From the sequence record SRR20825019_1762: DNA of 64,000 nucleotides; one strand, 5' to 3'. Of the stretch, positions 38,891 to 55,861 are shown piece after piece. The position numbers and the translations under genes were made by a program. Under the pieces are notes generated by a model, which saw only the letters and a list, made by a program, of their open reading frames with translations, was not told where the DNA came from and searched no databases. Numbering within the stretch: the first letter of the stretch is position 1; the number at the start of each line of letters is the position of its first letter.

Positions 38891-40039
38891 TTAATTTTCA
38901 TTAGCGACCAATGCATTAATTCTTTGTATAGAGCCATCAGGGTTATAAGTAAGCTCTGTCATTTTTACGCTTCTTAAGTGTGTTTTCCCACCGGACATGG
39001 AACTGTCGTGAAAAAATAACCACCACTTTCCTTGGTATTCCACAATAGAATGATGGTTGGTCCAACCCAATACAGGATCTAAGATCACCCCTTGATAAGT
39101 AAACGGCCCATATGGATTATCCGCGATAGCGTAAACAATATTATGGGTATCACCGGTGGAGTAAGAAAGATAATATTTGCCATTATATCGGTGGACCCAG
39201 GCAGCTTCAAAAAACCTTCGGTCGTTGTCGCCCGCAAGAATTGGTTCGCCATTCCGATCCAATATCACAACATCTTTGGGTTCCTCTGAAAAGCTTACCA
39301 TATCGTCGCCCATTTTGGCAATCTTGGGCATAAGGGCCGGTTCGTCATCCGCAGGGTATTTGTCGGCTCCCAAATATTCCCCTTGCTCCCATTGCTGGAG
39401 CTGTCCGCCCCAAATACCTCCAAAATACATATAATAGGCACCATCCGTATCCTCGAAAACCGCCGGATCCATACTAAAGCTTCCTTCAATGGGCTCCGCC
39501 ATGGCCTCAAATGGACCTCCGGGAGTATTGCTTTTGGCAACACCAATATGAAAAACATCGTCTTTATCCTTTACTGGGAAATACAAAAAATATTGATCAC
39601 CCTTTTTAGCGGCATCCGGAGCCCACATTTGCCTACCTGCCCAAGGGACATCGTCAATATGTAGCGCAAGTCCATGGTCTGTAACCTCTCCTCCCACACT
39701 ATCCATCGAAAACACATGATAATCTTCCATGTTAAAATGACTTCCCAAATCATCCTCCGGAATTCCTGATTCAAAATCATGGGACGGGTAAACATATAGC
39801 TTGCCTTCAAAAACATGTGCAGAAGGGTCCGCAGTATAAAGTTCAGATGTTAAAGTATATACCATATCAGGGGCAATTCCAATGGTGTCTTCAACAACAT
39901 CAACATTCCCTTGAACATTTTTGGATTCTTTTTTTTCACGTTTGCACCCAAAAGTGAAAAAAAATAGAGAAATCAGTAAAAAACAAGAAGAAAGAATGCT
40001 TGTTAAGCGGATTTTACGGCTAAAAAATGTGTTTTTCAT
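38891..40039 (-). CDS. GH43 subfamily 1 beta-xylosidase/arabinosidase, lipoprotein
   Basis: YTADPSAHVF, MWAPD, SMDPAVF, RRFFEA, GWTNHHS; lipobox TFGC. Confidence 0.92.
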   Translation of the reverse strand: MKNTFFSRKIRLTSILSSCFLLISLFFFTFGCKREKKESKNVQGNVDVVEDTIGIAPDMVYTLTSELYTADPSAHVFEGKLYVYPSHDFESGIPEDDLGSHFNMEDYHVFSMDSVGGEVTDHGLALHIDDVPWAGRQMWAPDAAKKGDQYFLYFPVKDKDDVFHIGVAKSNTPGGPFEAMAEPIEGSFSMDPAVFEDTDGAYYMYFGGIWGGQLQQWEQGEYLGADKYPADDEPALMPKIAKMGDDMVSFSEEPKDVVILDRNGEPILAGDNDRRFFEAAWVHRYNGKYYLSYSTGDTHNIVYAIADNPYGPFTYQGVILDPVLGWTNHHSIVEYQGKWWLFFHDSSMSGGKTHLRSVKMTELTYNPDGSIQRINALVANEN

Positions 40040-40201
40040 AATACGATAAATGGTTTTAATTGTTAAAAATACACATATTTTTTAATAAACAATCGTTTGC
40101 CTATATCTTTAAAAAAATATATTGTATTGTATATCAGTATTTTACATTGTTTTAATTGAGTATTCAGAATAATTTCAATATCAAATTTAAAAAATTTTAA
40201 C

Positions 40202-40213
40202 GCAACCGATTGC
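40202..40213. promoter_or_regulatory. LacI-type operator GCAACCGATTGC overlapping the -33 TTG of the putative susC promoter
   Basis: 11/12 match to the palindromes at 49657 and 61856; TATATTTA -7 variant 19 nt downstream (40232-40239). Confidence 0.7.
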
Positions 40214-40314
40214 GCAAATAGATATATTGTGTATATTTAACACATTCAAAATTACAGGTATGTTTTTTTGCCGTATCTGGATTAATTAACTAAACAAAAT
40301 CAAAACTTAGTAAC

Positions 40315-43300
40315 ATGACTGAAAAATCATTATTTGTTTTTACAAACAGTAAATGGTCCTCGCCTTTGCATTTGTATCTAACAAGCTTTTTGTTATTTAT
40401 TTTTTGTACTACTGCACTAGCACAGGACATTATCTCGGTATCTGGAACAGTGACCGATGAATCGGGTGCACCTATTCCCGGGGTAAGTGTACTTGTACAA
40501 AACACAACAAATGGAACATCGACAGACTTTGACGGGAACTATGTGCTCGAGGCGGCTTCCAGTGCCACCCTTGAGTTTCGCTATCTTGGATTTGTTACGC
40601 AAACGATTGAGGTTAATGGAAGGTCAACAATTAACGTTCAATTAGCTGAAGACACACAGCAACTATCAGAGGTTGTAGTAATTGGGTATGGTACCCAAAG
40701 TAAAGAGTCCGTAACTGGTTCGGTAGTGTCCATTAAGGCCGAGGAATTGAACGAAGTTCAATCCGCCAACTTTACGCAAGCCCTTGTAGGACGGGCCGCA
40801 GGTGTAAATATTTCCTCCACCAGTACACGTCCGGGAGCTGCACCACAGATTCAAATTCGTGGCGTACGCTCACTTACAGCATCAAATGATCCATTAATTG
40901 TTTTAAATGGAATCCCTTTTTCTGGGGGGCTCAGCGACATCAACCAAAACGACATTGAGAGTTTGGATATCCTAAAGGACGCCTCGGCCACAGCAATTTA
41001 TGGATCTAGGGGAGCCAATGGGGTAATCCTCATCACAACAAAGTCAGGTAAAAAAGGACAAAAGGCACAATTCTCTTACAATACTTATTATGGTACCAAG
41101 GAAGTGTTTGCCAAGTTACCAGTAATGAATACGGCCCAACTATTGGAATTACGTGAGATTGCCGCTGCCAATGGCACCGGAACGCCTACAGGAAATGATG
41201 AAAGTGTTGATAATGATACGGATTGGCAAGATTTATTGTTTGGTTCATCCATGCAAACCTCCCACGATATCACTGTACAAGGAGGTACTGAAAATGGCAC
41301 CTACAATGTAGGTTTGGGCTATTTTAAAGAGACTTCTCCTGTTCCCGGTGATTCTTTTCAAAGATATTCCCTACGTTTTTCACTGGACCAACAAGTGGGT
41401 AAATTATTTCGTTACGGGGTAAACTCGGTAATGAACTATAGTGTTACCAAAAGCATAGTCGGTCCAGCCGGGGTGTATACCGCATCTCCTCTTTTAAGTC
41501 CTTATGATGAAAATGGAAACTTTTTGGAATCTGTTAGACTTACGGATGGACAAGACCAAGTATTCATCCCTACTCGAAATGAGATCAACCGAATTGGTAA
41601 ACGAAGAGCAAACGAGCAATTGGACTTCGGTACCTATAACAACGTTTACGCAGAACTTAAAATGCCCTTTATTGCTGAAGGCCTTAAGTACCGCCTTAAC
41701 GTTGGTCTTAACCTAAGATCGAGCAGAGATGGCGATTTTACTGGTCAGGGTGTCTTTAGTTTTAATCCTGATCAACCTAATTCGGCCAGTTACGGAACTA
41801 GTCTTACGCGGGACTATGTAGTTGAGAACCAATTGATTTTCGACAGGACCTTTGCCGATAAGCACAAAGTGAATTTCGTCGGGCTTTTTTCGGCTCAAGG
41901 AAATGATTTTGATAGTTCTTTTATACGGGTTCAAAATATACCGGATGAAAACGATTTATGGTACAATACGGATTCAGCTCTATTGGAAGACGTATTGGAT
42001 TATGATACCAGTTATACAGAATGGGGGCTGTTATCTTTAATGGGAAGGGTCTTGTATGAATATGACAACCGTTACCTGCTTACCGCTACCATACGATCAG
42101 ACGGTTCCTCACGATTGGCGCCAGGTAACAAGTGGTATACCTATCCTGCGGTATCCGTAGGGTGGAACATTGCCAATGAAGCTTTTATGGATAATGTAGA
42201 TGCCATTAACCAATTAAAATTAAGGGCGGGTTATGGAGAAACCTCCAACCAGGCCATTGATCCTTTTTCTGTTCAAGGACGACTAAATGGTGGTGGTACC
42301 AACCCTGCGTATAATTTTGGCGATGTTTTTGCAAATGGTTATGTGGTGACCCAATTGCCCAACTCAAACTTAAAATGGGAGTTTTCGAAAACCTATAATT
42401 ACGGTATTGATTTTGGCCTTTTCAATAATCGCCTTTCTGGTACGGTAGAGTATTATGAAACCGAGACTAACAATATTCTGCTTAACCTCGGTCTACCAAG
42501 CACCTCTGGTGTAAGCAACGTAACCAGTAATGTGGGTAAAACAAAGAGCAATGGGGTGGAGATAGCACTGAATGCTACTCCAATCCAAACTTCGGATTTT
42601 ACTTGGGATGTAGGTGTTAACCTCTATACCAACAGGACCGAGATTGTCGAATTGGCATCAGGTCAACAAGAAGATGTAGGCAACCTTTGGTTTGTAGGCC
42701 AACCTCTTAGCGTTATCTATGATTATGAACGACTGGGATTGTGGAATGCCGATGATGAAGGTGCCGAATTTCTTGAACAATTTGTACCTGGGGGTAATCT
42801 AGGAATGATACGGGTGCGATATACTGGGGAATATAATCCGGATGGTTCACCTGTTCGTCAAATCAATGCGGAAGATAGGGTAGTTATAGACCCAACTCCT
42901 AATTTCCGAGGTGGTTTCAATACTCGCTTTGCCTATAAGAATTTTGATCTTAGCATGGTGGGAGCATTTCAAAGTGGAGGTATTTTAGTAAGTACCCTAC
43001 ACAATACTAATGGTAACACCATGAGGCTAAATGGTCGGGGAAACAACCTTAATGTAGACTACTGGACCCCAACCAACACCGATGCCAAATATCCGGCACC
43101 AGGGGGCATAGGCGGGGACCGGCCAGAATATGGTAGCACCTTGGGGTATTTTGATGGTTCTTACCTAAAGGTACGAGCCATGACCTTGGGCTATAGATTT
43201 GACCCAGATGTGATCAAGGCTATGGGAGCCAAAAATTTATACATATACGGTACAGTACAAAACCCATTTGTACTATTCTCCGATTTTCACGATGAATCGG

Positions 43301-43461
43301 GATTAGATCCAGAAATCACAAATTCGGGTGTGGACAACAACGGAGTAAGGCAAAATGCAGACATAAATACCAATGGGACTGTTTCCGGTAGTATCCCGAC
43401 CATTGGTACCAACGTACCATCTACGCGAAATTATTTATTTGGATTAAATATAACTTTCTAA
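40315..43461 (+). CDS. susC: SusC TonB-dependent transporter (xylan PUL), no STN domain
   Basis: LSEVVVIGYG, PLIVLNGIP, LKDASATAIYGSRGANGVI, C-terminal NITF. Confidence 0.95.
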   Translation: MTEKSLFVFTNSKWSSPLHLYLTSFLLFIFCTTALAQDIISVSGTVTDESGAPIPGVSVLVQNTTNGTSTDFDGNYVLEAASSATLEFRYLGFVTQTIEVNGRSTINVQLAEDTQQLSEVVVIGYGTQSKESVTGSVVSIKAEELNEVQSANFTQALVGRAAGVNISSTSTRPGAAPQIQIRGVRSLTASNDPLIVLNGIPFSGGLSDINQNDIESLDILKDASATAIYGSRGANGVILITTKSGKKGQKAQFSYNTYYGTKEVFAKLPVMNTAQLLELREIAAANGTGTPTGNDESVDNDTDWQDLLFGSSMQTSHDITVQGGTENGTYNVGLGYFKETSPVPGDSFQRYSLRFSLDQQVGKLFRYGVNSVMNYSVTKSIVGPAGVYTASPLLSPYDENGNFLESVRLTDGQDQVFIPTRNEINRIGKRRANEQLDFGTYNNVYAELKMPFIAEGLKYRLNVGLNLRSSRDGDFTGQGVFSFNPDQPNSASYGTSLTRDYVVENQLIFDRTFADKHKVNFVGLFSAQGNDFDSSFIRVQNIPDENDLWYNTDSALLEDVLDYDTSYTEWGLLSLMGRVLYEYDNRYLLTATIRSDGSSRLAPGNKWYTYPAVSVGWNIANEAFMDNVDAINQLKLRAGYGETSNQAIDPFSVQGRLNGGGTNPAYNFGDVFANGYVVTQLPNSNLKWEFSKTYNYGIDFGLFNNRLSGTVEYYETETNNILLNLGLPSTSGVSNVTSNVGKTKSNGVEIALNATPIQTSDFTWDVGVNLYTNRTEIVELASGQQEDVGNLWFVGQPLSVIYDYERLGLWNADDEGAEFLEQFVPGGNLGMIRVRYTGEYNPDGSPVRQINAEDRVVIDPTPNFRGGFNTRFAYKNFDLSMVGAFQSGGILVSTLHNTNGNTMRLNGRGNNLNVDYWTPTNTDAKYPAPGGIGGDRPEYGSTLGYFDGSYLKVRAMTLGYRFDPDVIKAMGAKNLYIYGTVQNPFVLFSDFHDESGLDPEITNSGVDNNGVRQNADINTNGTVSGSIPTIGTNVPSTRNYLFGLNITF

Positions 43462-43465
43462 AAAA

Positions 43466-45409
43466 ATGACTGTGAAAATTAATTTTAAAGCTAAAGTGAT
43501 TACGGTTCTTTCTGTTGTCTTTTTACTGAGCGCATGTACAAAAGAAATTATAGAAGAGAACCCAAGAGGACAATTTACACCTGATTTTTTCCAGTCCGAG
43601 ACTGGTGTTCAGGGCGGTGTGGTGTTCTTATATGAAACCATGAGGGATATTTATGGGAACCCCGGATTCTTTAATTCCACGGAATCGGGTACGGATGAAT
43701 ATACCTTTGCAGAGTCTGCAACCGGTGATTTTAAAAACGTGGACTTGTCCGGAGAAGGACAGATCATATCAGATGAAGGTGCAACTGCTGGAGTATGGTT
43801 TGCGAGTTTCCCTGCCATTAATACAGCCAATGGTATTTTGGAAAATGCAGAGGCCGTAGGATTGGACCCTGCCCTTGTTGCCGAAGTAAGGTTTTTTAGA
43901 GCATTTTATTACTTTTTATTGGTACAGACCTATGGTGGTGTGCCATTGGATCTAGGATCTGGAGAATTGGCATTCAATAGATCTGCTGTCAGGACCTCAA
44001 CACGTAATACAGTTCCGGAAGTTTACACAAAGGCAATTTTTCCTGATTTGGTTACAGCGGTTAACGATTTGCCTGAAAATCCAAGATTGACAGGTACGGT
44101 TACCAAAAATGTGGCCAGGCTCATTTTGGCCAAGGCGTATTTGACCTATGGTTGGTGGTTGGAAAATCCAGAAGGGATTCCAACATATCCTGAAGCTCAA
44201 AGAAACGATCCCGATGGAAATGATCCTTCATTTTATTTTCAAGGGGCATACGATTTGGCCATGGATGGTATACAAAATCCTGGTCCCTACGGTTTGCTGG
44301 AGTATTTTTATGATGTTCACGAAGGCTCTAACGATCGACATATGGAGATGATGTTGTATGCCGACCGTACTCCGGAAAACGAACAATTCAATGGTGCACC
44401 GGTAACAGGCTGGGGGACTACTTCCAACAGTTCCAACACCGCAGTTTGGATGGCAACATCCAATTATACCACCATCAGTGTTGATGGTGTTCCTGCCGTT
44501 CAACGGCAATCGGTTCAGAGCCTTGGTAGACCATGGACACGAATGGCACCTACAGTTAGCAGTTTAACCGAGACTTTTACCGATAAGGATATAGATTCCC
44601 GTTACGACGGTACTTTTACGACCAGTTATCGAGGCAATTGGGACCAAGGAGGCGACGCCACGCCGTCATTGACCGGTGCCAATGGTCTAGAAATTTTTCC
44701 AGGTGATGCCGTTATCTCATTTTTGGACGAGTATGATCCGGCTGTGGTATATGAAGAGAGTGGAGAGCCCATAAACGGTGCCAATATTGGTGGTGGGGTA
44801 TTGCCAGGAAGAGCAGATTACGTAATCAATGTAAACGAATTCAATAGAAGGTTCTATCCCGGTTTATGGAAGACAGGAACCTACCGTGACGATAACGCTG
44901 GAGGTCTGGGTCAGCCCAATGTGCCAAATACGCGCCCTTATCCCATAGCTAAGTTTTCAGAGTTCTATTTTATTGCTGCTGAAGCCCGAGTTAAAGGTGC
45001 ATCTGGAGCAATGAGTGCCAGGGACTTGATCAATGTGATCCGTGCCCGTGCAGGCAAATGGCGTTTTGATAATGGTGAACAAGAAGAGCGCATTGAAGAC
45101 AATAGTGCAGCCATGATAGCAGCTACTCCAATGACCATTGATATTGATTATATCTTGGATGAGCGTTCACGTGAGTATTTTGGTGAAAGTGTGAGATGGT
45201 ATGATCTAGTACGTACCCAGAAATGGATTGAAGTTGCTGGTTCATTCGAAATAGTAGATGACATCACTGCCACAGTTCATAGTCCCACTGCTACAATTTC
45301 ACGTGAAATCCAGCCTTATCATTACTTAAGGCCTATACCACAAACACAGATAGATAATTTGGATATGACCGATGCTGAAAAAGCCACCTATCAAAACCCT
45401 GGATATTAA
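43466..45409 (+). CDS. susD: SusD glycan-binding lipoprotein
   Basis: Lipobox LSAC; RFFRAFYY-LVQTYGGVP, ILDERSRE-FGE, RWYDL-R, PIPQ, QNPGY. Confidence 0.95.
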   Translation: MTVKINFKAKVITVLSVVFLLSACTKEIIEENPRGQFTPDFFQSETGVQGGVVFLYETMRDIYGNPGFFNSTESGTDEYTFAESATGDFKNVDLSGEGQIISDEGATAGVWFASFPAINTANGILENAEAVGLDPALVAEVRFFRAFYYFLLVQTYGGVPLDLGSGELAFNRSAVRTSTRNTVPEVYTKAIFPDLVTAVNDLPENPRLTGTVTKNVARLILAKAYLTYGWWLENPEGIPTYPEAQRNDPDGNDPSFYFQGAYDLAMDGIQNPGPYGLLEYFYDVHEGSNDRHMEMMLYADRTPENEQFNGAPVTGWGTTSNSSNTAVWMATSNYTTISVDGVPAVQRQSVQSLGRPWTRMAPTVSSLTETFTDKDIDSRYDGTFTTSYRGNWDQGGDATPSLTGANGLEIFPGDAVISFLDEYDPAVVYEESGEPINGANIGGGVLPGRADYVINVNEFNRRFYPGLWKTGTYRDDNAGGLGQPNVPNTRPYPIAKFSEFYFIAAEARVKGASGAMSARDLINVIRARAGKWRFDNGEQEERIEDNSAAMIAATPMTIDIDYILDERSREYFGESVRWYDLVRTQKWIEVAGSFEIVDDITATVHSPTATISREIQPYHYLRPIPQTQIDNLDMTDAEKATYQNPGY

Positions 45410-45576: not shown

Positions 45577-47376
45577 ATGAAAGTACTTGGGATATCCGCA
45601 TATTATCACGACTCTGCCGCAGCTCTGATTGTGGATGGCGAAGTAATGTATGCTGCCCAAGAAGAACGGTTTTCAAGAATAAAAAATCACGCCTCTTTTC
45701 CAGAGCAGGCTATAATATATTGCCTTTCCGAATCAGGCTATGCATTGGATGACCTTGACTATATTGCCTTTTACGACAAGCCCTTCCTTAAGTTTGAACG
45801 ACTTTTGGAAACGTATTATGCCTTTGCGCCTAAAGGCTTTCGCTCATTTGCCAAGGCTATGCCAATTTGGTTGAAGGAAAAACTCTTTACAAAACAGATC
45901 ATTCGGAAAAGCCTTAAAAAAATCGGTGGAGCACATGCTCTAAAAATTCCCATTGTATTTCCAGAGCATCATCTGTCCCATGCGGCCAGTGCCTTTTATA
46001 CCTCTCCTTTCGCCAAAAGTGCATTTTTGACGGTTGATGGGGTTGGCGAATGGACCACTACCTCCTATGGATTGGCTTCAGGCGACAAAGGAATCGAAGT
46101 ACTTGGGGAACTCCATTTTCCTGATTCACTTGGATTGCTTTATTCTTCTTTCACCTATTTTTTAGGGTTCAAGGTGAATTCAGGTGAATACAAAATGATG
46201 GGACTCGCCCCTTACAGTAATCTTCAATCCAAAAAAGTACAGGGTTTCATCGACATCATCAAAGAAAAATTAGTGGACATTAAAGGAGATGGTTCCATCA
46301 AACTGAACAAAGCGTATTTTGAATATCCCGTTGGGCTTCGGATGGTGAATCCCAAAAAGTGGGAAGCGCTTTTCGGATTCAAGAAACGGGATACCAATGA
46401 ACCCATGACACAAATACATGCGGATTTGGCCTTTGCGGCCCAAAAGGTCTTGGAAGAGATCATCGTAAAGCTGGCCCATCATATTAAAAAGGAAACCCAA
46501 GCGGAATATTTGTGCTTGGCAGGGGGTGTTGCCCTAAATTGTGTGGCGAACTCCGTTTTGTTCAATGAGGCTATTTTCAAGGACATCTATGTACAGCCCG
46601 CAGCGGGTGATGCCGGAGGCGCCATCGGGGCTGCCTTGGCCGCGGCGTATTTAAAGCAGGATTTGAACTTTACCGGACTCAAGAAACCGTTCAATCCTTA
46701 TCTTGGCCCGTGTGCATCCCATCAAGAAATTGAAAGAGTGTTGCGAAGGCACAAATGCCCATATCGTTATTTTGAATCCACGGAGGAACTTATGGGCACA
46801 GTTGCTGGTCATTTGGCTGAAAAAAAAGTAGTGGGATGGTTCAGGGGACGAACGGAATTTGGTCCAAGGGCATTGGGGAATCGCAGTATACTTGCCGACC
46901 CCTCGGACCCCGAAATGCAATCCAAGCTCAACCTGAAAATCAAGTTTCGTGAAAGCTTTCGGCCTTTTGCGCCTGCAGTTTGCGAAGAGGATCATGACAT
47001 TTATTTTGAGCCCGGCAAACAATCAGCATATATGTTGTTCACAAATCCGGTAAAAGCCTCACTCAGGAAATCGTTGCCCAAAAATTTCAACGAACTTACT
47101 CTAGAAGAAAAACGCAAAATACCTAAATCCGATTTGCCAGCCATAACCCATGTGGACTATTCGGCCAGGGTACAAGTGGCAAAAAAGGAGGTCAATCCCA
47201 CGTTTTGGGGTTTATTGCAGACCTTTAAAAAATTAACGGGTACCGGAGTGCTCATCAACACCAGTTTTAATGTTAAAGATGAGCCCATTGTAAACACCCC
47301 GGAAGATGCCTACCATTGTTTTATGAACTCGGGCATGGATGTTCTGGTTTTGGAAAATTATGTAATTGTAAAGTAA
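45577..47376 (+). CDS. O-carbamoyltransferase, NodU/CmcH/TobZ/SxtI family
   Basis: SAYYHDSAA, QEERF-R-K, HHLSHAASAF, DGVGE, AGGVALNCVAN, AAGDAG, EFGPRALGNRS, RESFRPFAP, NTSFN. Confidence 0.95.
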   Translation: MKVLGISAYYHDSAAALIVDGEVMYAAQEERFSRIKNHASFPEQAIIYCLSESGYALDDLDYIAFYDKPFLKFERLLETYYAFAPKGFRSFAKAMPIWLKEKLFTKQIIRKSLKKIGGAHALKIPIVFPEHHLSHAASAFYTSPFAKSAFLTVDGVGEWTTTSYGLASGDKGIEVLGELHFPDSLGLLYSSFTYFLGFKVNSGEYKMMGLAPYSNLQSKKVQGFIDIIKEKLVDIKGDGSIKLNKAYFEYPVGLRMVNPKKWEALFGFKKRDTNEPMTQIHADLAFAAQKVLEEIIVKLAHHIKKETQAEYLCLAGGVALNCVANSVLFNEAIFKDIYVQPAAGDAGGAIGAALAAAYLKQDLNFTGLKKPFNPYLGPCASHQEIERVLRRHKCPYRYFESTEELMGTVAGHLAEKKVVGWFRGRTEFGPRALGNRSILADPSDPEMQSKLNLKIKFRESFRPFAPAVCEEDHDIYFEPGKQSAYMLFTNPVKASLRKSLPKNFNELTLEEKRKIPKSDLPAITHVDYSARVQVAKKEVNPTFWGLLQTFKKLTGTGVLINTSFNVKDEPIVNTPEDAYHCFMNSGMDVLVLENYVIVK

Positions 47377-47526
47377 ATGGAGTTTTTAAAAGAATTCTTT
47401 CTGTTTCTAAAAGAGCGAAAAAAGTGGTGGTTGGTACCCTTGATCATCATATTTGTGCTTTTTGGCATACTGATTTTTTTGACCAGTAGCTCTGCACTGG
47501 CACCTTTTATTTATACCTTATTTTGA
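47377..47526 (+). CDS. 49-aa single-TM DUF5989/SxtK-like peptide (not in the ORF track)
   Basis: Translated by hand: MEFLKEFFLFLKERKKWWLVPLIIIFVLFGILIFLTSSSALAPFIYTLF. Its ATG directly follows the upstream TAA and its TGA overlaps the next ATG. Confidence 0.88.
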   Translation: MEFLKEFFLFLKERKKWWLVPLIIIFVLFGILIFLTSSSALAPFIYTLF

Positions 47527-47885
47527 TGGAAAGGGAAAAAGCTTTTGAAACGATCATTGTTCTGGCACTGGCCTCGCTCATTTTTTCAGTGTGGTTGCAC
47601 GTGGAGTGGCTGGTCTATGTGGCCATGGCCTTTTTGGCCATCGGTGTTGTTTCCAAACGGGCTTCGACCCTTATTGCAAAAGTATGGCTAGGGTTTTCCC
47701 ATTATCTGGGTGTGGTAATGAATTTTGTGTTAATGTTCATCATATTTCATTGCATACTGATTCCTCTGGCAGGGTTGCAACGTTTGTTTGGCAATAATCA
47801 GGTTCGTAAGAAAACTACCGAAACTTCCTATTTTCATCCACGTAAGCACCTTTACACGGGGAAGGATATTGACAATCCCTGGTAG
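47526..47885 (+). CDS. SxtJ-like small membrane protein
   Basis: ATG at 47526 (TGATG overlap); hydrophobic segments; W--FS--LG...IFH-IL-P...SYF...NPW pattern; synteny with the carbamoyltransferase and DUF5989. Confidence 0.78.
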   Translation: MEREKAFETIIVLALASLIFSVWLHVEWLVYVAMAFLAIGVVSKRASTLIAKVWLGFSHYLGVVMNFVLMFIIFHCILIPLAGLQRLFGNNQVRKKTTETSYFHPRKHLYTGKDIDNPW

Positions 47886-47900
47886 CCAAAAAATTTGAAT

Positions 47901-49628
47901 TTACCTTTTTGTAGAACGGTTCTTTTTAAGATAGTTGCTCTTCTTAAAATAATAATCGGCATAAGCATCATCCTGTAACTTACGGCACATCTCCCCTGCC
48001 ATCTTATAAACTTTGTACTGTTCAGGAAACTCAAAAATCAAGGTCTGGGCCACTTTTAGCGCACTTTTATAATCCCCATCCTCATTGTATTTGTGATAAG
48101 CCTGAGTCATTACATACTGCCATTGGTCCTGATGCCTATATAGATTGACGGCAGTTTTTTCCTCGAAGGTCGGGTTTTGTGTCACATAACTAAACTCAGC
48201 AGGCGTTGTTCCGGACATACTCAGGTCATAGGGCCATGATTTTTTAAGGATTTCCACCGCCAATTTCCCTTTTATGGAATCAATTTTGGTCACTGGAATA
48301 TCATCAAAGGCCTCTTCATATGTAATATAGTTTTGCCAACCTTTCAGTAGTCTCAGTTCTTTGATTTTTTCGTAGAACGCATCCGCCATCACAAAATACC
48401 CTTCCACGTTGGGGTGTACGTGCTCCGCCACCAATTTATCCCCCACTATCCCATATGGAACTTTGGATTCGAATATGCCCTTCATATCAACCAAAGGTAG
48501 GTCGTACTCATGGGCCTGCTCGATAATTGCATCGTTGATCCTTTCGGGGGCCCTAAACCTTAATAGATCCAATTCTTTGGCCAAGTGCAAGTATTTTTTG
48601 GCGGAATCTGGTTCCTTTTCCAGATAATATTGGCCCAAGATATAGGCCGCATCTGCATTTTGAAGCGCCAAACCATGCCCTTCAGTTTTATTTTCCTGAA
48701 TCGCCGCTCTGTAATCCTCAACATTCAGGCTATCGCTGATAAAAGGCTTGATATCCTTTTCATTCGACACTAGGGTTGAAAGTATAACAGGGATATTATG
48801 ACGTTGATATTTATCCAATATTCTTTTCAAATTACTTTTGAACTGCGTTATTCCCGCATTAAAAGCATCTGAATCCAAAGGAATTTCCTGCTCTTTGGCC
48901 ATGACCTCCATCAAGGTGGTCTCATCGGTAGACATGGTATTTTGGTCATCCGACTTCATCAGGCCCATGATTCCGTTTTCAAGCAGTTGAAAAAACCGAA
49001 AGTTCTTCAGTCTAAGGTAATTTCTGACCAATGCGGGATGACTCCCAACGGAAGCGGAAGAACCTACCCCCAGGGCCCCATAATATTCGTTGTGTCCCGC
49101 ATAAATAATGACCAAGTCCGGTTTTTGATCAATAATTTTATCGGTTATGTCCCATAACGTATAGGAATTTACCGCCGTGATTGCGGTATTGACCACTTCT
49201 ATGTTTTTTTCCGGGAACGTCCGGGAAAGCCTATGTTTCAATAGTCTTGGGAAAGACGCCCCCTTATAGAAAGGATAGCCCACGACGGTTGAGGCCCCTT
49301 GGACAAACACCCTAAAGGTGCTATCCGTTTTTTGTCTGAGGAAGAGGTCCGATTGACTATCCGCATTAAAATCTGTCCCTCTAAAATATTTCTTGGACAA
49401 ATCGGAGTTGACAACCAAATACTCAACGCCATTTTCACCCTTGACGCTATTGAATAATTGGTAATTTTCCCCATAGCCAATCCCCCATAAAATTGGCTCC
49501 AAGATTAAGATCATGATCAATGGAAGAGTCGCCGCAATAATTCTAAAAAGTATTTTCTTCTTCACACCAGAGAATTTTGTCTGTTCATGAGTACTAGTTA
49601 AATAGTGCTTAACTGGGTTTATCCACAA
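47901..49628 (-). CDS. Membrane-anchored SGNH/GDSL-fold protein with TPR-like segments
   Basis: N-terminal KKK plus TM helix (start may be GTG at 49565); block I GAST, block III YAGHNE, block V EHVHP. Confidence 0.8.
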   Translation of the reverse strand: MWINPVKHYLTSTHEQTKFSGVKKKILFRIIAATLPLIMILILEPILWGIGYGENYQLFNSVKGENGVEYLVVNSDLSKKYFRGTDFNADSQSDLFLRQKTDSTFRVFVQGASTVVGYPFYKGASFPRLLKHRLSRTFPEKNIEVVNTAITAVNSYTLWDITDKIIDQKPDLVIIYAGHNEYYGALGVGSSASVGSHPALVRNYLRLKNFRFFQLLENGIMGLMKSDDQNTMSTDETTLMEVMAKEQEIPLDSDAFNAGITQFKSNLKRILDKYQRHNIPVILSTLVSNEKDIKPFISDSLNVEDYRAAIQENKTEGHGLALQNADAAYILGQYYLEKEPDSAKKYLHLAKELDLLRFRAPERINDAIIEQAHEYDLPLVDMKGIFESKVPYGIVGDKLVAEHVHPNVEGYFVMADAFYEKIKELRLLKGWQNYITYEEAFDDIPVTKIDSIKGKLAVEILKKSWPYDLSMSGTTPAEFSYVTQNPTFEEKTAVNLYRHQDQWQYVMTQAYHKYNEDGDYKSALKVAQTLIFEFPEQYKVYKMAGEMCRKLQDDAYADYYFKKSNYLKKNRSTKR

Positions 49629-49750: not shown

Positions 49751-50866
49751 GTGAACAAATTTATCTTTTTGATTCTACCCATCCTGATATTTTCAGGAAC
49801 TCAATCCAAAGCTCAACAAAAACTAACACTCAAAGAAGCTTTTAAAGACAAATTTTTGATGGGCGTAGCAGTGAATCGATATCAAATAAACCAAAGCAAC
49901 CAGGAGGAAACAGACCTTATCGCTTCCCAATTTAATGCGCTGACAGCAGAAAACGACATGAAATGGATGTACATACATCCGGAGGAGAACACATTTAATT
50001 TTGAGCAGTCCGATAAATTGGTGGAACTCGCTCAAAAAAATGACATGTTCGTGGTTGGCCATACCCTTGTATGGCATAGCCAATTGGCACCTTGGGTATT
50101 CAAGTCCAACAATGGGGATACCATTAGCAATGAGGAGTTGAACGGCCGAATAAAAAAGCATATCTCTACCATTGTTGGGAACTACAAGGGCAGGATAGAC
50201 GCTTGGGATGTCGTCAATGAAGCTTTGGAAGAAGATGGATCATATAGAAAATCCCCGTTTTACAAAATAGGTGGAGAAGCCTTTATAGAAAAAGCGTTCC
50301 AATATGCAAATGCTGCCGACCCTGGAGCCGAACTCTACTACAACGACTATAACCTTATCACCCCGGAAAAGAGGAACGGGGCCATACGTATTATCAACAA
50401 CCTTAAAAGCAAAGGAATCAAAATAGACGGCGTTGGAGTTCAAGCCCATTGGAGTTTGAACGAACCCTCCATTGAAGATATCGAGACCGCCATTAAAATG
50501 TATTCGGAAACTGGTGTAAAAGTCATGTTCACGGAACTGGATATTTCGGTTTTGCCCAGTCCTTGGAACGCGCCGACCGCTGATGTTTCCGTAAGTTTTG
50601 AGAACAACCCTACCATGAACCCCTACCCCAACGGCTTGCCGGATTCTGTACAAACCCAATTGGCAAAACGGTATGAAGAAATTTTTAAGCTTTTCAACAA
50701 GCATTCGGATAAAATTGGAAGGGTTACCTTTTGGGGGTTGCACGATGGCCTGTCCTGGAAAAACAATTTTCCCATTCGCGGCAGAACGGATTATACCTTG
50801 CTTTTCGATAGGGGAATGAAACCCAAAAAGGCATTCAATGCAGTAATCAATACAGTTAAAGATTAA
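49751..50866 (+). CDS. GH10 endo-1,4-beta-xylanase, signal peptide
   Basis: ENDMKW, GHTLVWHSQ, WDVVNE acid/base, YYNDYN, TELD nucleophile, RVTFWG. Confidence 0.96.
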   Translation: MNKFIFLILPILIFSGTQSKAQQKLTLKEAFKDKFLMGVAVNRYQINQSNQEETDLIASQFNALTAENDMKWMYIHPEENTFNFEQSDKLVELAQKNDMFVVGHTLVWHSQLAPWVFKSNNGDTISNEELNGRIKKHISTIVGNYKGRIDAWDVVNEALEEDGSYRKSPFYKIGGEAFIEKAFQYANAADPGAELYYNDYNLITPEKRNGAIRIINNLKSKGIKIDGVGVQAHWSLNEPSIEDIETAIKMYSETGVKVMFTELDISVLPSPWNAPTADVSVSFENNPTMNPYPNGLPDSVQTQLAKRYEEIFKLFNKHSDKIGRVTFWGLHDGLSWKNNFPIRGRTDYTLLFDRGMKPKKAFNAVINTVKD

Positions 50867-50888
50867 CTTCCATCATTCCAACAGATTA

Positions 50889-53867
50889 ATGAAAACAACA
50901 AATAGGTCAACATATCAAACTTGCCTTGGTCTTACAGGATTGTTCCTGCTGCTATTCCTGACATCCTGTAAAAAGGAAAAAAGAGAAACTACTACTGAAA
51001 CCAATATCATGGAACGGGTTCTAACACTATCAACGGAAGCCGCCTTTCCACAAAATTCAATCCTTACCACCCAAAAGGATGAAAGTGGGTTCACCTTGGT
51101 GGAAAATGGAATTGCCAGCAATATCCTTGTCAGTGAATCGGACCACGAAGGTGTTCAACGGATTGCCGGAATGTTCCAAAAAGATTTAAAACATGTTTCT
51201 GGTCAAGCACCGGAATTGATCATTGGGGATACACCCGGATCAAAGAACTTGATCATTATAGGAACCGTTGGCCAGAGCACTATAATCGACCGTTTGGCCA
51301 AAGACGGCAAAATCGATATAGAGGTACTGGAAGGAAAATGGGAGCAATTTTTAATCACTCCCGTAAAAAACCCGATGGAAGGAGTTGACAGCGCATTAGT
51401 AATCGCTGGGAGTGACAAACGGGGGACTATTTTTGGAATGTTCGACCTTTCCGAGCAAATGGGTGTTTCTCCATGGTATTGGTGGGCCGATGTTCCCGTG
51501 AAGGTTCGAAAAAACATTTACGTCAAACCTGAAAGGTACACCCTCGGTGAGCCCAAAGTAAAATATAGAGGCATCTTCATCAATGACGAAGCCCCGGCAT
51601 TATCGGGTTGGGTAACAGAAAAATATGGGGATTTCAACAAACAATTCTATGAAAAGGTATTTGAATTGATTCTCAGAATGAAAGGGAACTACCTTTGGCC
51701 TGCCATGTGGGGGCGCTCCCTTTGGGACGACGACCCCACCACGGCCCCGTTGGCAGATGAAATGGGTGTGGTTTTGGCCACATCGCACCACGAACCATTG
51801 ATGCGTTCGCACGTGGAATGGGACCGCCACGGCGAAGGTCCGTGGGATTATGACAAAAACCCTGAAAAACTAAGGGAGTTTTGGAGAGAAGGGATGGAGC
51901 GTACCAAAGGACAAGAAAAAGTGGTGACCCTTGCCATGCGAGGAGACGGGGATGAAGCCATGAGCGAAGGAACCAACATTGACCTTCTTGAAAAAATAGT
52001 AAAAGACCAAAGAGAAATCATCAAGGAAGTCACGGGCAAACCCATTAAAGAAACCCCACAAGTGTGGGCCCTTTACAAAGAAGTCCAGGAATATTACGAC
52101 AAAGGCATGCGTGTACCCAAGGATGTCACCCTATTACTTTGTGATGATAACTGGGGACAGGTCCGCGTTTTGCCTGCTTTGGACAGCGAACCCCGCTCAG
52201 GCGGCTATGGGATGTACTATCATTTTGACTTTGTAGGCGGCCCCCGAAGTTATAAATGGTTGAACACCACTCAAATTGAACGGGTCTGGGAGCAAATGAA
52301 CCTCACCTATTCCTACGGAGTGGATGAGATTTGGCTCGTAAATGTGGGAGATATAAAGCCCATGGAGTTCCCGATCAGTTTCTTTTTGGATTATGCTTGG
52401 AACCCTGAAAATTTTCCAGCAGAAAAGCTGCCGGAATATTACACCACTTGGGCCCAAAAGCAATTTGGAACCGAACATGCCCAAGAAATTGGCGAAATCA
52501 TAGCACTTTACACCAAATACAATTCACGCAGAAAACCAGAACTGCTAGAACCCGCCACCTATAGTCTTCAACATTTCAACGAAGCTGAGAATATGGTAGA
52601 AGATTATAATTCCTTGGTGACCCGTGCAAAAAAGGTGAAAGGTCAGTTACCTTCCAAGGCCCATGATGCTTTTTATCAATTGGTGCAATATCCTGTTGAG
52701 GCCTGTGTAAATTTGAACGAAATGTATGTGGCAGCAGGAAAGAACCGATTGTACGGTTTTCAGAACAGGGCATCCACCAACTACTATGCAGATAAAACAG
52801 AGGAGTTGTTCTTCAAGGATACCGTGTTCACAAATCACTATCATGATCTGGCCAATGGCAAATGGAACCATATGATGTCCCAAACCCATATGGGACATAC
52901 GACTTGGAGTGACCCAGCCTACAATAAAATGCCCGCAGTATCCTATATTCAATCAGGAAAAGATGCTCATTTGGGATATGTGATTGAAAATGGTATCAGC
53001 AGAAATCAATGGATGCCCAGTGGATTAAACAGTCAAAGCTTTTCTACTTTTGATCCCATCAACGATCAAAACTACTATATCGATGTCTTTAATATGGGCA
53101 AGGAAAAACTGTCGTACACCATCACTTCAGAAAATGATTGGATAAAGTTATCCTCCGAGGGCGGAACCATCCAATATGACGAAAAGGTCTTTGTCAGCAT
53201 TGATTGGGACAAAGCTCCCCAAGGACAGGATGTTGGGGAAGTTGTTATTACTGCATCAAATGCAGAACAAGGCACTAAAATCAACGTCCCCATTCGCAAT
53301 GATCTCCCAGAAAACATCAAAGGTTTTATAGAAAATCAAGGCATTGTAAGCATGGACGCTGTGAATTATCAAAAGTCCAATGAAACAGAAGATATTTCTT
53401 GGCAAACCATACCCAATTTAGGACGAACAGGGTCTGCCATAACCACTATGCCCGTTACCGCGGCCAAACAAAATCCTAACGATAACGGTCCGTATTTGGA
53501 ATATGATATTTACTTGATTGATCCAGGCACTTATAACCTAACGACCTACTTTTCACCTACCCTTAACTTTCAAAAAGATGAAGGTTTGCTTTATGCTGTT
53601 TCCATAGATGATGAAGCGCCAAAATTGATGAACTTGCACCAAGATGCCATTGCTGCGGATTGGACCTATCCCACTTGGTGGAACGAAGCGGTCAAGGACA
53701 ACATCATGAAACAAACGGTGCTAGCCAAAGATCTTTCGGCAGGTGTCCATAGCATCAAGTATTGGGCCGTTGACCCTGGGCTTGTATTACAAAAAATGGT
53801 ACTGCAAAAAGAAGGTGTTGATGCGAAAAGTTATTTGGGTCCGCCTGAAAGCTTGATCAAGAAATAA
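50889..53867 (+). CDS. GH115 xylan alpha-1,2-glucuronidase, lipoprotein
   Basis: GSDKRG, GVSPWYWWAD, YRGIFINDE, NYLWPAMW, SHHEP, RGDGD, YYHFD, NVGDIKP; lipobox LTSC. Confidence 0.95.
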   Translation: MKTTNRSTYQTCLGLTGLFLLLFLTSCKKEKRETTTETNIMERVLTLSTEAAFPQNSILTTQKDESGFTLVENGIASNILVSESDHEGVQRIAGMFQKDLKHVSGQAPELIIGDTPGSKNLIIIGTVGQSTIIDRLAKDGKIDIEVLEGKWEQFLITPVKNPMEGVDSALVIAGSDKRGTIFGMFDLSEQMGVSPWYWWADVPVKVRKNIYVKPERYTLGEPKVKYRGIFINDEAPALSGWVTEKYGDFNKQFYEKVFELILRMKGNYLWPAMWGRSLWDDDPTTAPLADEMGVVLATSHHEPLMRSHVEWDRHGEGPWDYDKNPEKLREFWREGMERTKGQEKVVTLAMRGDGDEAMSEGTNIDLLEKIVKDQREIIKEVTGKPIKETPQVWALYKEVQEYYDKGMRVPKDVTLLLCDDNWGQVRVLPALDSEPRSGGYGMYYHFDFVGGPRSYKWLNTTQIERVWEQMNLTYSYGVDEIWLVNVGDIKPMEFPISFFLDYAWNPENFPAEKLPEYYTTWAQKQFGTEHAQEIGEIIALYTKYNSRRKPELLEPATYSLQHFNEAENMVEDYNSLVTRAKKVKGQLPSKAHDAFYQLVQYPVEACVNLNEMYVAAGKNRLYGFQNRASTNYYADKTEELFFKDTVFTNHYHDLANGKWNHMMSQTHMGHTTWSDPAYNKMPAVSYIQSGKDAHLGYVIENGISRNQWMPSGLNSQSFSTFDPINDQNYYIDVFNMGKEKLSYTITSENDWIKLSSEGGTIQYDEKVFVSIDWDKAPQGQDVGEVVITASNAEQGTKINVPIRNDLPENIKGFIENQGIVSMDAVNYQKSNETEDISWQTIPNLGRTGSAITTMPVTAAKQNPNDNGPYLEYDIYLIDPGTYNLTTYFSPTLNFQKDEGLLYAVSIDDEAPKLMNLHQDAIAADWTYPTWWNEAVKDNIMKQTVLAKDLSAGVHSIKYWAVDPGLVLQKMVLQKEGVDAKSYLGPPESLIKK

Positions 53868-53902
53868 TCTAATTTTCAACATAATTTGATAAAACACGTA
53901 TT

Positions 53903-55861
53903 GTGAAAAACGATAAAACCTTTGCAACATTCATATTATTGATGTTCTGTGTCACTGCAGGAATATCCCAGATAACGCTTCCTGAAATAATCAGGGACAG
54001 TATGGTCATCCAGCGCAACGCCAAAATCACCATTTGGGGCTGGGCTTCGCCGGGAGAGCGGATAACGGCAACATTCAACGGAAAGCAAAGAAAAACGTCT
54101 GCCGATTCCGAAGGCGACTGGAGCTTGGAATTCCCCAAAATGAAGGCGGGGGGCCCTTACACCCTAGAAATTTCCGGAAAAAACAATATCCGTCTCGAAG
54201 ATATTTTGATCGGGGATGTTTGGCTCTGTTCCGGACAATCGAATATGGTGCATCAAATGGACATTCACGATGTTACCTATGCAAAAGATATTGTCAATGC
54301 CAATTACCCTGAAATCAGGCATTTTAAGGTGCCTCGAAAGACTGATTTGCAAGGCCCGAGCAAAGATTTGGACGGAGGCTCTTGGAAAGTTGCCGTATCC
54401 GAAGAGGTTCGGCCTTTCTCTGCCGTCGCTTATTTTTTTGCACTCAAATTGTATAAAAAATATGGGGTGCCCATCGGACTGATCAATGCAAGTGTCGGCG
54501 GTACTCCCATTGAAGCTTGGATAAACGAGGAAGGCTACCAAAAATCCCCTGGCATTTTAAAAATTATTGAGGAGAACAAGGACACTGCTTTTGTAAACAG
54601 TCATTCCATTAACCGGTTTTCTGGGAATCAACCATCTCAAAAACCAAAAGACAAGGGCCTTATCGGCGAAAAACCTTGGTATGATGTCAACTTTGAACCC
54701 AAAAACTGGCGTAGGATAAACATCCCTGGATATTGGGAGGATCAAGGAGCCAGAGACCTTAACGGTGTGGTTTGGTACAGGAAGGAAATCGTTCTGCCCC
54801 AATCCATGGACAACGAAGAGGCGACCGTGTTTTTGGGCCGTATCGTAGACGCCGATGAATTGTATATCAATGGTGAAAAAGTGGGCAACACCACCTACCA
54901 ATATCCACAAAGAAGATATGATGTTCCCGCAAATATTCTGAAAGCCGGGAAAAACACTTTTGTCATTCGTGTGACCAATAATTACGGTAAGGGTGGTTTT
55001 GTTCCCGATAAACCTTATTACATTTTTACGGATAAGGACACCGTGGATTTAAATGGATACTGGCAATACAAGGTTGGAGAAGTGTATCCGCCCGTTGATT
55101 TTTCCTCTTTTTCTCAGAATGATGGCAAATCCAAAGAAAGAACCATCAATCCCCAAAATGAGCCCACGGCTTTGTACAACGGTATGGTGGCCCCCTATAT
55201 CCAACTTCCCATAAAAGGCGTGTTGTGGTATCAAGGCGAGAGCAACGCTGGCAGACCTGAGGAATACCTGGACTTGATGCACGCCCTGATGAATGGATGG
55301 AGAGGAATTTACAATGATCCCGAGCTGCCTTTTATCTATGCGCAGCTTCCCAATTTTGGTGATGTGACCTACTCCCCCACCGAGAGCAACTGGGCCGAAC
55401 TCAGGGAAGCACAACTAAAGGCGCTGGGCGGCCCCAGCACCGCAATGACCGTCAATATTGATTTAGGGGAATGGAACGATATCCACCCGGACAATAAAAA
55501 AGATGTAGGGGAGCGAATGGCTTTAGCAGCCAAAAAAATAGCGTATGGAGAAGATATCGTCTATTCAGGACCACTTTATCAATCTTCTCAAATAAAAGAT
55601 GATAAAATCATCATTTCCTTTTCACATATCGGGGGAGGATTGACCACTGATGATGGTGAGGCTCTTGATAGCTTTGAGATTGCCGGTGAGGACAAAAACT
55701 TTGTTTGGGCCAAGGCAAAAATTGATGATGACAAAGTAATCGTTTGGAGTAATGAAGTTCCTAATCCAAAATATGTACGATACGCATGGGCCGACAATCC
55801 CGACAATCCGAATTTATACAACAAAGAAGGTCTTCCTGCATCACCCTTCAGAACTGAATAG
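53903..55861 (+). CDS. SASA/sialate O-acetylesterase-like glycan acetylesterase (CE20-type split SGNH)
   Basis: GDVWLCSGQSNM, inserted beta-sandwich, WYQGESN, DIHP-NK, VRYAW, GLPASPFRT. Confidence 0.88.
   Translation: MKNDKTFATFILLMFCVTAGISQITLPEIIRDSMVIQRNAKITIWGWASPGERITATFNGKQRKTSADSEGDWSLEFPKMKAGGPYTLEISGKNNIRLEDILIGDVWLCSGQSNMVHQMDIHDVTYAKDIVNANYPEIRHFKVPRKTDLQGPSKDLDGGSWKVAVSEEVRPFSAVAYFFALKLYKKYGVPIGLINASVGGTPIEAWINEEGYQKSPGILKIIEENKDTAFVNSHSINRFSGNQPSQKPKDKGLIGEKPWYDVNFEPKNWRRINIPGYWEDQGARDLNGVVWYRKEIVLPQSMDNEEATVFLGRIVDADELYINGEKVGNTTYQYPQRRYDVPANILKAGKNTFVIRVTNNYGKGGFVPDKPYYIFTDKDTVDLNGYWQYKVGEVYPPVDFSSFSQNDGKSKERTINPQNEPTALYNGMVAPYIQLPIKGVLWYQGESNAGRPEEYLDLMHALMNGWRGIYNDPELPFIYAQLPNFGDVTYSPTESNWAELREAQLKALGGPSTAMTVNIDLGEWNDIHPDNKKDVGERMALAAKKIAYGEDIVYSGPLYQSSQIKDDKIIISFSHIGGGLTTDDGEALDSFEIAGEDKNFVWAKAKIDDDKVIVWSNEVPNPKYVRYAWADNPDNPNLYNKEGLPASPFRTE

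Follow-up and report, generated by a model that had tools for sequence, protein, structure and literature searches.

Excerpts of PMC12148441 describe the tyrosine of the motif FXYXXF as an 'acyl shuttle': in DltX it passes D-alanine from DltB, a membrane-bound O-acyltransferase (MBOAT), to the SGNH-type enzyme DltD, and in PatA, where the tail is fused to the enzyme, the same Tyr is auto-acetylated, the acetyl-Tyr hexapeptide serving PatB as a donor. The motif reads FIYANF in PatA of N. gonorrhoeae (PMC12148441); one DltX ends in FLYFGF, and the DltX motif is placed on the extracellular face (excerpts of PMC11035591). The other system of relevance here is the saxitoxin biosynthesis cluster, whose gene tables, as excerpted, list sxtI, encoding a carbamoyltransferase (CT), together with sxtJ, sxtK and sxtL (PMC2679770, PMC2885083). 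These tables enter SxtL as a GDSL lipase, with decarbamoylation as its guessed role, and SxtJ and SxtK as proteins of unknown function (PMC2679770, PMC2885083); the latter two are also treated as helpers of SxtI (PMC2679770). In this study we analysed a stretch of 64,000 nucleotides from sequence record SRR20825019_1762 (the window, i.e. the whole stretch of DNA at its full length), which contains a gene for a 49-aa microprotein of the DUF5989/SxtK family, encoded between a CT and an SxtJ-family protein and ending in a tail of the FxYxxF type.

The microprotein gene lies on the plus strand at positions 47377..47526 of the window, from ATG to TGA, and its product matches the Pfam family PF19451 (DUF5989) over the full length (residues 1-49 on profile positions 1-49 of 49, E 2.1e-24, 85.7 bits, with a cut-off of 27 bits). 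The features that an earlier note had read from this frame are all present: an amphipathic basic N-terminus running to KERKKWW, a single hydrophobic transmembrane (TM) helix (approximately residues 18-36), a Ser linker (TSSS) and the free C-terminus PFIYTLF, within the final ALAPFIYTLF. Eight residues separate the TM helix from FIYTLF, Tyr46 is encoded at 47512-47514, and the stop codon follows directly after Phe49. The C-terminal tail (codons 37-49, SSSALAPFIYTLF, plus strand, 47485..47523), as read from the sequence, is the conserved segment that bears FxYxxF and is predicted to be extracytoplasmic. The gene is translationally coupled on both sides, the TAA stop of the CT gene (47374-47376) abutting its ATG, and its own TGA overlapping the ATG of the SxtJ gene as TGATG. 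A profile search of the whole genome to which the window belongs detected this single DUF5989 copy (83.9 bits). The microprotein is a real gene of the DUF5989/SxtK family, more than a chance open reading frame (ORF). It had also been described as unannotated, a label that cannot be judged from the window itself; NCBI names its close relatives 'DUF5989 family protein'. The positive-inside rule predicts a topology with the N-terminus inside and the C-terminus outside, which would place the tail on the outer face of the membrane; this topology and the small size fit the likeness to DltX that the earlier note had drawn.

The family is large and its tail nearly uniform. A phmmer search against 1.84 billion representatives of 50%-identity clusters gave 3338 matches at E<=0.001, the best 150 of which were used for tail statistics. 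Tyr is present in the tail of all 150, and the exact ending FxYxxF in 135; four deviate at position -6 (Y or L) or -1 (L), and 11 carry extra residues past a full or partial motif and resemble read-through or frameshifted calls. The earlier note had proposed to ask whether Tyr at -4 and the terminal Phe are invariant and the C-terminus never extended, and the answer is in its favour: 139 of the 150 sequences have no extension, and in this clean set (n=139) the outer pole is conserved as A at -8 (96%), P at -7 (99%), F at -6 (98%), I at -5 (90%), Y at -4 (100%) and F at -1 (99%). A second pole, on the cytoplasmic side of the helix, is formed by KK (96%), W18 (100%) and P21 (100%), and the distance from P21 to Tyr46 amounts to 25 residues in 133 of the 139 sequences. 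The conservation of both poles at a fixed spacing would be hard to explain by the needs of a mere anchor and speaks for an element that links the two membrane faces; the invariance of the Tyr is, as such, compatible with a covalent acyl-Tyr intermediate.

Because the 80 public loci that we used to survey gene neighbourhoods had been retrieved with the tail pattern itself, and are uninformative on its conservation, the tail was also assessed by searches independent of it. With a query made of residues 1-40 only, all 57 of the further close relatives found end in FIY[TS][LI]F. When the PF19451 hidden Markov model (HMM) was run on 401 Bacteroidota genomes, 147 had a match that passed the cut-off (60.6-93.7 bits, the remainder scoring 22 or less); all but one of these matches, which is cut by a contig end, extend to profile position 49, and each of the 30 loci returned reads FIY[TA]LF followed by a stop. 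Several long frames ending in DUF5989 were considered as possible fusions (L009, 158 aa; L034, 253 aa; L074, 159 aa; G344, 633 aa; G112, 434 aa; G289, 200 aa; G300, 122 aa) and rejected, being Arg/Pro/Ala-rich junk of high-GC DNA in which the peptide begins at an internal Met. A search for longer DUF5989 proteins returned only two, both with over-called N-termini (88 and 92 aa), and so argues weakly against fusions; the ESM Atlas look-alikes of the microprotein included no usable match outside PF19451.

Within its own genome the tail has few counterparts. Of 28,387 ORFs of at least 40 aa, 16 end in F.Y..F, and the narrower ending FIY..F is found in five MBOATs, the microprotein and one 55-aa junk ORF at a contig end; among the real proteins of this genome, FIYxxF is limited to the five MBOATs and the microprotein. 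The layout is also alike, since in each of these MBOATs a TM helix is followed by 5-8 residues and then by FIYF[QR]F-COOH. An hhalign comparison of the family with the five MBOAT tails placed the helix end, the linker and FIY in register (19 columns, P 0.0022). Four of the MBOAT genes lie within 40 kb on contig C1 (approximately 423-463 kb) and one on C38 (approximately 304 kb; loci L002-L006), and at least two have an SGNH-like gene directly downstream, one of which overlaps the MBOAT stop codon. This genome contains an unusually rich set of envelope acylation systems.

The resemblance to the DltX-DltB-DltD system of teichoic acid D-alanylation in Firmicutes concerns the tail, the size and the topology. 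Both comprise a single-pass microprotein of about 40-50 aa with a free F-x-Y-x-x-F end, predicted here to lie on the outer face; both show genomic coupling to a membrane-anchored SGNH-type enzyme, and in both the donor would be activated in the cytoplasm by an adenylate-forming enzyme. Unlike the DltX system, this locus has neither an MBOAT nor a carrier protein, the cytoplasmic partner being a Kae1/YrdC-type carbamoyltransferase together with SxtJ; the transferred group would be carbamoyl rather than D-alanyl, and the hosts are Gram-negatives and members of many other phyla. The microprotein also has a strongly conserved cytoplasmic collar, RKKxWLxP. With PatA/PatB, AlgI and other MBOATs that carry a fused tail it shares the position of the motif after a TM helix (FIYFQF or FIYFRF in the MBOATs, FIYTLF here), but its tail belongs to a protein with a gene of its own, free of any MBOAT.

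The constant partner of the microprotein is the CT. In the window this enzyme (599 aa, plus strand, 45577..47376) is of the NodU/CmcH/TobZ/SxtI type (Carbam_trans_N, E 2.8e-91; Carbam_trans_C, E 7.7e-69); it has no signal sequence and is therefore cytoplasmic. In a set composed of the window and the 80 public loci (n=81), examined by six-frame HMM searches in 8-kb flanks, a CT of the same type occurs in 72 loci and SxtJ in 72, both being present in 71. These loci span many phyla, including SAR11, Nitrospira, Acidobacteriota and cyanobacteria, and the gene order differs between clades (CT-K-J, J-K-CT or CT-J-K). Nine of the 81 loci have no CT nearby; the genomes of eight of these were checked, together with genomes G112 and G344, whose peptide loci also lack a CT, and G300, where no CT was found among the genes scanned at the locus. 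A CT is encoded elsewhere in all 10 of the 10 genomes with an unlinked peptide gene. It is also present in 5/5 further DUF5989-positive genomes of the same class and in 0/5 complete DUF5989-negative genomes of the same family. Overall, every DUF5989-positive genome tested (20/20, the window's own genome included) encodes a CT, and the genomic partnership of the microprotein with this enzyme is obligate. In three of the genomes mentioned (L120 in G344, L121 in G112 and L123 in G300) the DUF5989 gene is divergent beside LolC/E-like permease genes (MacB_PCD and FtsX), and the single CT gene lies elsewhere. In two other loci (L033 and L078) the DUF5989 gene precedes a gene for a nucleoside:H+ symporter-like transporter of the major facilitator superfamily. 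In five (L021, L023, L034, L074 and L084) a protein without Pfam match, 'c8' (634-1830 aa, with a truncated copy of 347 aa), is encoded convergently on DUF5989; three of these loci are alphaproteobacterial (Magnetospirillum, Geminicoccaceae) and two are labelled Acidobacteria.

The third member of the cassette is a small membrane protein of the SxtJ family (about 119 aa from the ATG at 47526, plus strand, 47526..47885; PF19588, E 9.7e-06, 26.7 bits with a cut-off of 24.4). The mechanically called ORF starts at an in-frame TTG, 47523. An AlphaFold2 (AF2) model (mean pLDDT 91.3) consists of three helices (residues 4-25, 29-43 and 45-88). Conservation of at least 90% is limited to W55 and P81. 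The model and this pattern of conservation suggest that SxtJ is probably a scaffold rather than an enzyme. The idea that it could be a catalytic mini-MBOAT was dropped because no polar residue is invariant. Frames with a C-terminal SxtJ domain occur in two high-GC loci (L019:6481-7977, 498 aa; L023:6238-7983, 581 aa); their first 370-450 residues have no Pfam match, and they may be over-extended calls, not real fusions.

The cassette shares with the saxitoxin genes sxtI-sxtJ-sxtK(-sxtL) the Pfam families (Carbam_trans, SxtJ PF19588 and DUF5989/SxtK), the tight linkage and the listing of a GDSL/SGNH gene, sxtL. It differs in gene order (CT-K-J here, I-J-K in the saxitoxin clusters) and in its surroundings, which are a Bacteroidota neighbourhood of the polysaccharide-utilisation type without toxin genes.

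An SGNH partner had merely been assumed when the tail was first compared with that of DltX. Our survey demonstrated that one SGNH subfamily adjoins the peptide in 48 of the 81 loci (42/81 by greedy ORF calling). Its matches cluster at the peptide gene: of 55, 43 lie no more than 2 kb away and 3 at more than 4 kb, flank coverage being similar. In four loci (L018, L035, L041 and L062) the SGNH gene is inserted between the CT and peptide genes, and in three others (L051, L066 and L076) the SGNH and peptide genes form a same-strand pair whose 8-kb surroundings contain neither CT nor SxtJ. Four of five genomes without an adjacent SGNH gene have strong full-length matches (>100 bits) elsewhere, the fifth being a 0.8-Mb partial genome. 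In the window the enzyme (575 aa, start codon uncertain; Lipase_GDSL_2, E 2.7e-10) is encoded on the minus strand at 47901..49628, convergently on the operon. Its AF2 model (mean pLDDT 79.6) contains a TM helix (20-49), helical inserts and a helical-repeat C-terminus, and the SGNH fold is confirmed by comparison with 1yzf (Z 19.1, root-mean-square deviation (rmsd) 2.4 over 188 aligned residues). GAS (111-113) supplies the block I Ser and ExxH (402-405) the block V His. An alignment of 45 partner proteins was made from the 48 ORFs by omitting one cut by a contig end and two fragments; across it G111, S113, N147 and H405 are at least 90% conserved, and position 402, which is Glu in the window protein, is Asp in the subfamily. 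An N-terminal hydrophobic segment is present in 44 of 46 subfamily members. The catalytic residues are intact and the membrane anchor is retained.

The recruited SGNH clusters give weak to moderate matches to the Pfam GDSL families. Used against its own 4.4-Mb genome, the partner-SGNH profile gives approximately nine matches at E<=0.001, the second best of which (E 1.9e-25) falls on the gene in overlap with an MBOAT gene's end; a second MBOAT neighbour scores 2.9e-6. Against PDB sequences it aligns with generic GDSL lipases (E 1e-19), CgnD (1.1e-15), AlgJ and AlgX (1e-8) and PatB (1.6e-7), and DltD is not among the 60 of 107 matches listed. A special kinship to PatB, DltD or AlgX was not seen; Foldseek and VIA-align list generic SGNH esterases. 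The enzyme as solely an acetylxylan esterase of the surrounding locus was rejected as well, given that relatives (of the same BLAST cluster and with 26-59% identity in the alignment) adjoin the cassette in unrelated contexts (L007, L008, L010, L051 and L079).

The contact between tail and SGNH active site that the earlier note had suggested examining by docking was modelled with ESMFold2 (SGNH residues 1-440 plus the peptide, no alignments, three controls). The complex scored 0.46, the best control 0.00, with at least 58% of contacts shared between runs and a partner pLDDT of at least 66. Of 78 solved complexes, 51 reach the mark used for this score, as do 2 of 108 mismatched pairs; at scores of 0.60 or below it is attained by only 5 of the 78 and by all four mismatches that pass (of 180). 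Unless the guess had good prior odds, a pass at this level is wrong in more cases than it is right, and the model lends the proposed contact weak support.

We tentatively prefer, as quite possible, a reading in which the microprotein is the SxtK-type subunit of a membrane-bound carbamoylation machine and works as a Tyr-based carbamoyl relay. Its basic N-terminal segment and RKKxWLxP collar would lie on the cytoplasmic face with the CT and SxtJ, the single helix would span the membrane, and the invariant tail A-P-F-I-Y-T-L-F-COOH would be exposed on the outer face. The CT, presumed to be the donor enzyme, would make carbamoyl-adenylate from carbamoyl phosphate and ATP and place the carbamoyl group on the hydroxyl of Tyr46; for loading, the tail might fold back into a funnel formed by SxtJ and the CT. 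From the aryl carbamate on Tyr46 the group would move to the catalytic Ser113 of the anchored SGNH protein, presumed to be the acceptor-side enzyme. This enzyme would hand it on to an extracytoplasmic acceptor, at a hydroxyl; a surface or secreted glycan is the probable acceptor. Such a relay is proposed by analogy with the logic of DltB-DltX-DltD and PatA-PatB, with the CT and SxtJ standing in for the MBOAT. Its chemistry is reasonable, since serine hydrolases are classically carbamoylated by aryl carbamates.

A number of observations weigh against this interpretation. The main gap is that no route is visible by which the carbamoyl group would get from a cytoplasmic CT, dependent on ATP and carbamoyl phosphate, to a tail predicted to be outside. 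No AT3 domain or MBOAT was found linked to the cassette, and no known conduit leads from a cytoplasmic CT to an outer-face tail; the alignment of SxtJ contains no invariant polar residue that could catalyse a step or line a tunnel. There is no MBOAT in the operon, the five of this genome being located on other contigs with tails of their own, and no recurring MBOAT was found among the Pfam-scanned neighbours of related loci (75 of 152 flanking genes, then 28 + 28 chosen). Carbamoyl-serine enzymes usually turn over slowly. As for the SGNH enzyme, 33 of the 81 loci have no subfamily member within 8 kb, and to judge from the profile and structure comparisons it appears no nearer to known polymer O-acyltransferases than to ordinary esterases. 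The 11 extended tails, if real, would mean that a free C-terminus is not obligatory. The sample of 81 loci is both biased, through the tail-based retrieval described above, and composed of related members (approximately 16 are Pelagibacteraceae).

The likeness to DltX is likewise limited on this side of the balance. The profile comparison that the earlier note had proposed came out negative: the DltX HMM (PF12459), run over the whole genome, gave nothing at this ORF (best E 0.168, elsewhere, and none above the cut-off); when the 55 members of the family alignment (54 of the best 150 matches plus the query) were scanned at E<=10, the families listed, 25 of 37, did not include DltX; and the family profile retrieved no DltX or MBOAT chain from PDB (best E 0.68). 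The hhalign probability against the MBOAT tails was 12.8%, with no significance beyond the motif. For the motif alone, a chance match of a hexapeptide in one of thousands of families cannot be excluded, the background of F.Y..F endings in this genome being 10 of 28,381 ORFs. The microprotein may work like DltX, yet by the HMM, Pfam and PDB-profile tests it is no member of the DltX family, and the resemblance to DltX and MBOAT tails appears to be one of design, not demonstrable homology.

The explanation that survives best beside a carbamoyl relay, although we consider it somewhat unlikely, is that SxtK and SxtJ only tether and orient the soluble CT at the cytoplasmic face of the membrane towards a lipid-linked or membrane-crossing substrate. 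The tail would then be a packing or assembly element (e.g. against SxtJ or a transporter) and the SGNH protein an independent tailoring or deacylating enzyme. Several of the observations made above suit such an arrangement: CT, SxtJ and peptide form the constant unit (71/81 loci) and the SGNH gene is missing from 33/81, SxtJ resembles a plain helical scaffold, no transmembrane carbamoyl route is visible, the cytoplasmic collar of the peptide is as conserved as its tail, and the excerpted literature casts SxtJ and SxtK as helpers of SxtI (PMC2679770). However, anchoring gives no reason for a Tyr held invariant at -4 from a free C-terminus across the membrane, nor does it account for a tail otherwise confined, within its own genome, to MBOATs. 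The pairs of SGNH and peptide genes without a nearby CT (L051, L066 and L076), and the crowding of SGNH genes within 2 kb, also speak against this reading.

Another alternative is an arm that never carries a group, the tail docking in the active site of the SGNH enzyme, or onto another periplasmic partner, to activate it, gate it or lend it a catalytic Tyr. This alternative, which we regard as improbable, requires no transmembrane transfer and agrees with the peptide-SGNH synteny and with the weak pass of the modelled complex (0.46 against 0.00 for the best control), but it does not explain why the partnership with a cytoplasmic CT is obligate, and the motif Tyr is covalently acylated in both of the systems tested in the excerpted report (PMC12148441).

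Finally, it is very improbable that the peptide is itself the substrate, with a tail that serves as the end target of modification or is cut off (as in a RiPP, a peptide made on ribosomes and modified after translation, or a lipid-anchored signal) by an SGNH enzyme acting as a CgnD-like peptidase: CgnD does cut a peptide with a C-terminal core in the crocagin cluster, which also encodes a CT, CgnI (excerpts of PMC10070186), and the partner-SGNH profile aligns with CgnD (PDB 8a2n) in a single stretch over nearly the whole length (E 1.1e-15; Z 16.6 and rmsd 4.1 over 229 residues for the SGNH model in VIA-align), but generic esterases outscore CgnD, RiPP cores usually vary but the peptide hardly differs between phyla, the scanned neighbours include no other recurring RiPP enzymes, and the CT topology poses the same problem as in a shuttle. 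The crocagin authors, in the excerpted text, consider that carbamoylation before cleavage might explain the slowness of CgnD (PMC10070186).

In the literature searched, which left out most subscription journals, DUF5989 was not found by name, 'acyl shuttle' was not found together with carbamoyl, nor SxtK with DltX, 'acyl shuttle' or FXYXXF. A link of the DUF5989/SxtK tail to the acyl-tyrosine shuttle was likewise not found there; the papers that name SxtK and SxtJ beside a carbamoyltransferase deal with saxitoxin genes.

In the window the cassette lies inside an apparent polysaccharide utilisation locus of the xylan type (38891-45409 and 49751-55861). Upstream are genes for a GH43 protein (38891-40039, minus strand), a SusC-like protein (40315-43461) and a SusD-like protein (43466-45409); downstream, a GH10 gene (49751-50866) is followed by ORFs of 992 and 652 aa, up to position 55861. 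The closest relative, locus L007, has the same arrangement of SusC/SusD, cassette and SGNH gene.

According to excerpts of saxitoxin-cluster papers from 2009 onward, SxtJ and SxtK have stood as 'unknown' beside the CT, and the DUF5989 family is both large and widespread, with at least 3338 clusters at 50% identity and members in 147 of the 401 Bacteroidota genomes sampled. The hypothesis put forward in the earlier note, that these peptides are Tyr-based carbamoyl carriers, would give the DUF5989/SxtK family a function. If the Tyr tail does carry carbamoyl, a role would be found for two families of unknown function, and a widespread SGNH subfamily would have to be re-read as transferases. The acyl-tyrosine shuttle, so far associated with MBOATs and related membrane acyltransferases only, would be extended by a donor enzyme and a chemical group both new to it. 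It is also possible, if rather doubtful, that DUF5989/SxtK and SxtJ represent a third route for the decoration of molecules outside the cytoplasmic membrane, independent of MBOAT and AT3 proteins, in which an ATP-dependent CT loads the Tyr of the free-standing microprotein, and a surface glycan or secreted metabolite then receives the carbamoyl from the SGNH enzyme. If this is true, the GDSL-type enzymes encoded beside such cassettes would be terminal carbamoyltransferases and not esterases, including the annotated decarbamoylase of the saxitoxin cluster; abundant marine bacteria (SAR11, Flavobacteriia) would carbamoylate their envelopes; and unrelated donor enzymes would have recruited the FxYxxF Tyr tail, a portable group-transfer arm of general use.

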